A DNA stretch of 64,000 nt from Dictyostelium discoideum (taxonomy: Eukaryota), in contig CM000153.2 in the NCBI GenBank assembly GCA_000004695.1, positions 1,440,001 to 1,504,000 of the forward strand. Reading direction: 5' to 3'. The first letter of the stretch is position 1. The number at the start of each line of letters is the position of its first letter. Below, piece after piece: positions 63,029 through 63,090 of the stretch. The position numbers were made by a program, and so were the translations under genes. Below the pieces are notes generated by a model. That model was not told where the DNA came from. It saw only the letters and a program-made list of their open reading frames with translations, and did not search any database.

Positions 63029-63090
63029 TTTGGCGCGAGGAGCACAATATATTTATAAAAAAATATGTGCGTTAAAATTATCGCGCCAAA
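63029..63090. promoter_or_regulatory. Pair of inverted E2F-type boxes (TTTGGCGCGA) upstream of ribonucleotide reductase
   Basis: TTTGGCGCGA is at 63029-63038 (+) and its exact reverse complement TCGCGCCAAA is at 63081-63090, 52 bp apart. They are the only GC-rich islands in a poly-A/T background. They lie about 430-480 bp upstream of the ATG at 63512. Both match the E2F consensus TTTSGCGC. Confidence 0.5.

Follow-up and report, generated by a model that had tools for sequence, protein, structure and literature searches.

Two E2F-type boxes lie in inverted orientation about 50 bp apart upstream of rnrA, the gene for the ribonucleotide reductase large subunit of Dictyostelium discoideum, in the 64-kb stretch of DNA that was analysed (referred to as the window). 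We consider it likely that these boxes are two separate putative E2F/DP heterodimer sites that would confer RblA-dependent control on rnrA. Because the motif recurs in most of the related social amoebae, the boxes are probably real, and expected, control sites. The features of the region, with coordinates in the window, are as follows.

62004–62171, minus strand: first exon of the divergent neighbour, which encodes a coiled-coil DUF2046/PH-domain protein and starts at 62171
62929–62941, plus strand: HSE-like element GAAGATTCTCGAA (GAAnnTTCnnGAA), about 95 bp upstream of box 1
63029–63038, plus strand: E2F-type box 1, TTTGGCGCGA, with the 8-mer TTTGGCGC at 63029–63036 and the CG core GGCGCG at 63032–63037, preceded by T15
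63039–63069, no strand: variable part of the spacer, containing an imperfect inner palindrome, GCACA..TGTGC
63070–63078, plus strand: short conserved flank CGTTAAAAT, just upstream of box 2
63081–63090, minus strand: E2F-type box 2, TTTGGCGCGA, which reads TCGCGCCAAA on the plus strand, with the 8-mer at 63083–63090, followed by A12 to 63099
63176–63186, plus strand: block TCAAACATCAA, about 90 bp downstream of box 2 and preceded by T-rich sequence, invariant in three species of the D. discoideum complex
63386–63423, plus strand: conserved proximal block A15-GTAATTTTCCACTAAAAACGTTG, the longest invariant run in the three-way intergenic alignment
63516–64000, plus strand: 5′ part of rnrA (DDB_G0284071), which continues beyond the edge of the window

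The 10-mer TTTGGCGCGA is present in exactly two copies in the window, one on each strand, and the count expected from 100 dinucleotide shuffles is 0.00. An earlier note on this DNA had reported a 10-mer and its exact reverse complement 52 bp apart, about 430–480 bp upstream of the start codon of an R1 gene, and had assigned both to the E2F/DP consensus. These observations were reproduced. The starts of the boxes are 52 bp apart, leaving a 42-bp gap between the 10-mers, and relative to the rnrA ATG (63516) the boxes occupy -487 to -478 and -435 to -426. Both read TTT-GGCGCG-A, an exact match to the E2F consensus TTTSSCGC (as defined in PMC3734150), with the symmetric [C/G]GCGC[G/C] core and T/A flanks. 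The same note had called the boxes the only G/C-rich words in their surroundings. This holds for pure G/C words of at least 6 nt, as the closest other one, CCCCCC at 63439, is about 350 bp away, but shorter mixed words do occur nearby, for example TAGGGTGGTC at 63000. Over the whole 64 kb, GGCGCG/CGCGCC words were found only in the two boxes.

The consensus TTTSSCGC has three matches in the window, compared with 0.57 expected, and there is no other non-coding match in the 64 kb besides the boxes. The third, TTTCCCGC at 27620, was considered as a second E2F target and rejected, as it sits in a coding exon (..NSVIFPPTSK). This is the first exon of a gene at 27489–31225, made up of a short first exon and a 1067-codon ORF and encoding an extremely N/Q-rich protein with no Pfam match, and the presence of the motif there looks like chance.

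The downstream gene, previously labelled R1, was identified as D. discoideum rnrA. Its product is 98% identical to RnrA of another D. discoideum strain, and dictyostelid RnrA orthologues were the top matches when the N-terminus encoded in the window was used in a protein search. Exon 1 (63516–63596, 81 nt) is followed by an intron of 91 nt (63597–63687) and exon 2 begins at 63688. The intergenic region of 1.34 kb (62172–63515) is common to rnrA and the DUF2046/PH gene, and contains no tRNA or RNA gene, the sole Rfam match having E = 0.57. Elsewhere in the window, one complete ORF encodes a protein identical to the citrate lyase beta-like protein XP_638723.1 of D. discoideum AX4, which assigns the DNA to this strain, and no further S-phase genes were found among the 20 window ORFs scanned with Pfam.

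Dictyostelium has a single E2F (DDB_G0284129) and a single DP (DDB_G0276799) (PMC3386910). Because the dictyBase numbers are close, an e2f gene was also sought in the window, and tblastn with an approximate N-terminus of human E2F4 detected none. The suggestion that an Rb-E2F pathway governs S-phase genes in this organism is supported in the case of rnrA by published RNA-seq data, in which this gene is repressed by RblA 5.14-fold during growth and 13.04-fold during development (PMC3386910, Table S2), and in which expression of rnrA is maximal in late G2 and at mid-development (PMC3386910). The boxes, beginning at -487 and -435, are therefore in the upstream region of a gene that is RblA-repressed and so dependent on the Rb/E2F axis. 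While the RblA dependence of rnrA mRNA is published, the sequence match, the rarity and the conservation of the boxes are findings of the present analysis. The main text of Strasser et al. (2012) includes no promoter-motif analysis, and its sole mention of an E2F element concerns the Tdd-5 transposon (PMC3386910). In the literature searched, we found no description of E2F sites in the rnrA promoter or in any Dictyostelium promoter, no report of motif enrichment upstream of RblA-repressed genes, nothing relevant on cis-elements of rnrB and no E2F or RblA ChIP data set.

It is known that almost every S- and M-phase gene of Dictyostelium is subject to repression by RblA, and the published work deals with mRNA changes only. 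Paired, conserved consensus sites in front of a gene that ranks among the most strongly RblA-dependent ones provide a concrete and easily mutated cis-element. They would allow one to ask if the control by RblA is direct, via E2F/DP, and how a single E2F can act in both repression and late-G2 activation in an organism that lacks G1. The rnrA boxes are otherwise what the Rb-E2F paradigm predicts; they will be expected by specialists and are a useful test object.

To assess conservation, the rnrA loci of eight other dictyostelids were compared, namely D. dimigraforme (L008), D. purpureum (L009), Polysphondylium violaceum (L010), Tieghemostelium lacteum (L011), Heterostelium album (L012), Cavenderia fasciculata (L013), Acytostelium subglobosum (L014) and D. 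citrinum (L015). A first protein search returned only fragments of up to 229 aa, and the loci from it (L001–L007), which are non-dictyostelid, GC-richer or intein-bearing, were left out of the footprinting. A query consisting of the 131-residue N-terminus repeated five times recovered full-length RnrA from the eight dictyostelids.

In a three-way alignment, the boxes in the window align with sequences upstream of rnrA in D. citrinum and D. dimigraforme, the two other members of the D. discoideum complex. D. citrinum has TTTGGCGCGAGGA at -449 as box 1 (10-mer TTTGGCGCGA) and, on the minus strand at -397, TTTGGCGCAT as box 2 (8-mer TTTGGCGC). In D. dimigraforme, an overlapping palindrome, TTTGGCGCCAAA, forms box 1 at -453 (10-mer TTTGGCGCCA), and ATTGGCGCAA at -404 on the minus strand forms box 2 (ATTGGCGC in reverse). 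The sequences TTTGGCGC in box 1 and GCGCCA in box 2 are invariant, and the three species agree at all ten G/C positions in the two cores, compared with 49 of 173 over the entire intergenic region. In the global three-way alignment there are just six invariant runs that are at least 8 nt long and contain at least two G/C, and GCGCCAAAAAAA (63083–63094) is among them. The flank of box 2 is CGTTAAAAT in D. dimigraforme and, with one mismatch, CGTTAAACT in D. citrinum, and CGTTAAA adjoining box 2 is conserved in these close relatives, while the remaining sequence of the spacer differs. Two further candidates in the vicinity, the inner palindrome GCACA..TGTGC and a G-box-like sequence (TAGGGTGG at 63000), were rejected, as neither is conserved in D. 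dimigraforme.

The distance from centre to centre of the boxes is 51, 49 and 46 bp in D. discoideum, D. citrinum and D. dimigraforme, respectively, and positions 9 and 10 of the 10-mer vary (GA and AT in D. citrinum, CA and AA in D. dimigraforme). The conserved unit is an inverted 7–8-nt E2F word at a roughly constant spacing and not a 10-nt dyad. The earlier note had suggested that the 10-bp dyad is a paired site for one dimeric factor, and this part of it has to be abandoned because the spacing is far too long and there is no conservation past the 8-mer. A single box by itself makes up a full E2F/DP heterodimer site, which also argues against one site shared by a symmetric dimer. A single palindromic site for a symmetric dimer was rejected on the same grounds, with centres 51 bp apart and only the 7–8-mer retained.

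The complementarity between the two boxes extends into the adjacent T15 (63017–63031) and A12 (63088–63099) to give perfect 19-nt arms, and the layout of 63017–63099 is T15-GGCGCGA-(42 bp)-TCGCGCC-A12. This 83-nt stretch folds as single-stranded DNA with an energy of -23.9 kcal/mol (z = -5.4 compared with shuffles). Such a repeat could be important as a DNA structure, a cruciform or hairpin at, for example, an origin or recombination hotspot, or could be a neutral inverted duplication. However, inverted E2F sites flanked by runs of T and A are complementary automatically, neither the complementarity past the 8-mer nor GCACA..TGTGC is kept in D. citrinum and D. dimigraforme, and no Rfam or tRNA match was found in the region. 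In addition, C. fasciculata, H. album and T. lacteum have single, unpaired E2F words, indicating that it is the word that is kept and not the pairing. An explanation in terms of DNA structure or neutral duplication is consequently very improbable, and the two boxes are treated below as separate putative E2F/DP sites.

Other conserved or repeated sequences are found in the same intergenic region. The TCAAACATCAA block is a candidate transcription start region, and the A15-GTAATTTTCCACTAAAAACGTTG block a candidate for the core promoter or part of the 5′ UTR. The start of rnrA transcription is accordingly predicted at about 63176–63190, or else close to 63420. The latter is followed by a palindrome, GTTGGTTACAACCAAC, that is not conserved. 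A perfect inverted repeat with 15-nt arms (TGTATAACAAAATTT at 62729–62743 and AAATTTTGTTATACA at 62754–62768) and a 10-nt loop is absent from D. citrinum and D. dimigraforme.

Among the more distant dictyostelids, P. violaceum has GGCGCGCCAAAAAAA at -503 and CCCGCCCAAA 50 bp downstream of it. E2F-type words were found at -447 in C. fasciculata (TTTGGCGCCAAT, measured from a corrected ATG), at -729 in H. album (GTGGCGCCAAG), at -225 in A. subglobosum (CCCGCCAAT) and within rnrA intron 1 in T. lacteum (TTTTTTGGCGGG, L011:4108–4119). The orientation of the boxes is not kept outside the D. discoideum complex. The correction in C. fasciculata was made as the public model of rnrA (942 aa) looks wrong, being extended at its 5′ end across apparent intergenic DNA (L013:4001–5331). 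The first exon with homology to RnrA begins at the ATG at 5332, which is probably the true start, and no long ORF was found between the EF-Tu gene and this ATG. Similarly, the SF3b-like model in H. album (L012:2920–3798) seems to overrun its last real exon by about 900 bp.

The exception was D. purpureum, in which no GGCGC/GCGCC/GGCGG/CGCGC-type word is present between -1500 and +1300 of rnrA, the sole GCGC word in that span being AGCGCT at -475. Canonical E2F sites are thus not indispensable in every species. With the three species of the D. discoideum complex, which are not independent, counted as one lineage, the strict TTTSSCGC motif was found in three of seven independent lineages (P = 5.6e-5, -800 to +150, each sequence compared with its own dinucleotide shuffles). 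A relaxed 7-mer, which was picked post hoc from the data, was found in six of the seven (P = 3.4e-8, same span and shuffles). Compared with the remaining 140 kb of dictyostelid sequence that was retrieved, the regions upstream of rnrA contain the strict motif at a 26-fold higher density. Hence, with the exception of D. purpureum, conservation in the orthologous promoters goes beyond neutral expectation.

As the intergenic region is shared by two divergent genes, the boxes could serve the DUF2046/PH neighbour instead of rnrA, or both genes. This gene is also next to rnrA in D. dimigraforme and D. citrinum. However, the boxes are 860–920 bp from the ATG of the neighbour compared with 430–490 bp from that of rnrA, and the part of the table of RblA-repressed genes that was available contains no gene with an adjacent dictyBase ID (PMC3386910). 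Across the dictyostelids the flanking gene varies (DUF2046/PH, Rad51-like, EF-Tu, SF3b or CSN1) and E2F-type words nevertheless accompany rnrA, which shows that the motif goes with rnrA. A role in expression of the neighbour therefore has little to recommend it and we give it only a slight chance.

In both D. purpureum (L009:2181–3067) and T. lacteum (L011:1691–3532), rnrA is divergently paired with a Rad51-family gene, and in the T. lacteum gene model this is fused with a Vid27-like domain. In D. discoideum, rad51 and Vid27 are among the RblA-repressed genes (PMC3386910), and the rnrA/Rad51-family intergenic regions may be shared cell-cycle promoters.

It is also conceivable that the conserved GC boxes are bound by a different GC-box/CGCG-binding dictyostelid protein and that the resemblance to E2F sites is coincidental. 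Conservation is limited to a core of 7–8 bp, so sequence alone cannot assign specificity, and D. purpureum does without the canonical E2F word. Against this, the conserved part is exactly the E2F consensus together with its T-flank (TTTGGCGC), and the forms that the word takes in other species are classic E2F variants (TTTGGCGCCAAA, TTTGGCGG and CCCGCCAA). Furthermore, rnrA responds to loss of RblA, the partner of E2F, and no other dictyostelid factor with such a specificity is described in the literature searched. Binding by another factor is unlikely, though less so than the two alternatives considered above, and E2F/DP remains the favoured candidate for the protein that recognizes the boxes.

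The HSE-like sequence GAAnnTTCnnGAA occurs once in the 64 kb, and across the D. discoideum complex the element is found 88–105 bp upstream of the E2F boxes. By the form of its sequence, 62929–62941 is an HSE (at least three alternating inverted nGAAn units), with a perfect three-unit GAAgaTTCtcGAA in D. discoideum and D. citrinum, and two units and a partial unit in D. dimigraforme and D. purpureum. Three other group-4 species, D. citrinum (L015:2445–2455), D. dimigraforme (L008:3457–3467) and D. purpureum (L009:3682–3692), each carry, upstream of rnrA, a single copy of the 11-mer AGATTCTCGAA, and so it is kept exactly even in the species that has no canonical E2F words. The core TTCTCGAA was also found upstream of rnrA in C. 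fasciculata (L013:4650–4657) and, reversed, in T. lacteum (L011:3780–3787), i.e. in two of the five lineages that were not used to define it (P ~0.014). We know of no link of HSF to rnrA.

The HSE-like element may act as a co-element upstream of rnrA. A more speculative proposal, which we regard as rather unlikely, is that the E2F pair and the HSE-like TTCTCGAA are the two halves of a deeply conserved composite control module. If this were so, a second factor (HSF, or a stress or DNA-damage factor) would co-regulate RNR with E2F/DP, and could replace E2F/DP in some lineages. A combination of an E2F-type GC motif with an HSE-like element, as at rnrA, has been described for HSF-1/E2F promoters in Caenorhabditis elegans (PMC5066613). 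However, there the GC motif is 20–40 bp upstream of a degenerate HSE (PMC5066613), whereas at rnrA the HSE-like element is 88–105 bp upstream of the boxes. The HSE-like/E2F composite is at this point a lead only.

Pairs of E2F sites are found in well-known promoters. The adenovirus E2 early promoter contains two inverted E2F sites and that of DHFR contains overlapping inverted sites (TTTCGCGCCAAA). The rnrA region resembles these in having more than one E2F site, and in the inversion of the sites, and the TTTGGCGCCAAA/T sequence in D. dimigraforme and C. fasciculata is an overlapping palindromic site like that of DHFR. It differs in that the spacing is 46–51 bp, rather than overlapping or about 25 bp, and nothing at rnrA points to a bridging protein such as E4-6/7. 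More than one site, in this case in tandem, is also found in the p107 promoter (PMC2891812).

E2F sites are known to control the R1 and R2 genes of tobacco and the R2 genes of mouse and zebrafish (PMC3161108). An E2F word near a cell-cycle-regulated RNR gene is thus a feature that rnrA shares with tobacco RNR1a, RNR1b and RNR2 and with mouse and zebrafish R2 (PMC3161108). In mouse and zebrafish R2 the E2F site is repressive, and action of such sites through Rb-family repression is the likeness to rnrA (PMC3161108). The position of the site is flexible, as that of tobacco RNR1b is in the 5′ leader (PMC3161108) and those of T. lacteum and of a non-dictyostelid locus (L002) are in intron 1. Compared with the plant and animal genes, rnrA has a pair of inverted sites, separated by about 50 bp, at a distance of about 450 bp from the ATG. 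They lie in intergenic DNA of about 13% G+C, in an organism with no G1 phase and a late-G2 peak of expression, and are known from sequence. In Cryptosporidium parvum, the motifs TGGCGCCA and TTTGGCGGGAA have the same GC core, which is likewise conspicuous in AT-rich DNA upstream of DNA-metabolism genes (PMC3734150). However, the C. parvum motif is extremely common and there is no Rb (PMC3734150), whereas in the window the motif is rare and an RblA-E2F-DP axis is defined.

Control of rnrA by the boxes could operate as follows. In most of G2 and in differentiating cells, RblA would be bound to E2F/DP at the boxes and rnrA would be held down. RblA would be inactivated in late G2 and at mid-development, and E2F/DP, acting at the same boxes, would then produce the burst of rnrA mRNA ahead of M/S. 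Having a second site would probably lead to higher occupancy or to cooperative binding. Here, we infer the binding of E2F/DP, the direction of the effect and any cooperation between the boxes. The distance of 430–490 bp between the boxes and the rnrA ATG is a point against this scheme.

An E2F-type word was also seen at an RNR gene beyond the dictyostelids. In a non-dictyostelid eukaryote with 44% G+C, TTTGGCGC is in the short first intron of the RNR large-subunit gene (L002:3968–3975 / L003:57–64). The presence of E2F-type words in RNR intron 1 of two unrelated organisms, this one and T. lacteum, recalls the 5′-leader site of tobacco RNR1b. Three further loci (L004–L006, from Logan SRR28285696, SRR25885115 and SRR28285697) encode a eukaryote-like RNR large subunit with matches to Hint/intein-splicing domains inside the catalytic domain.
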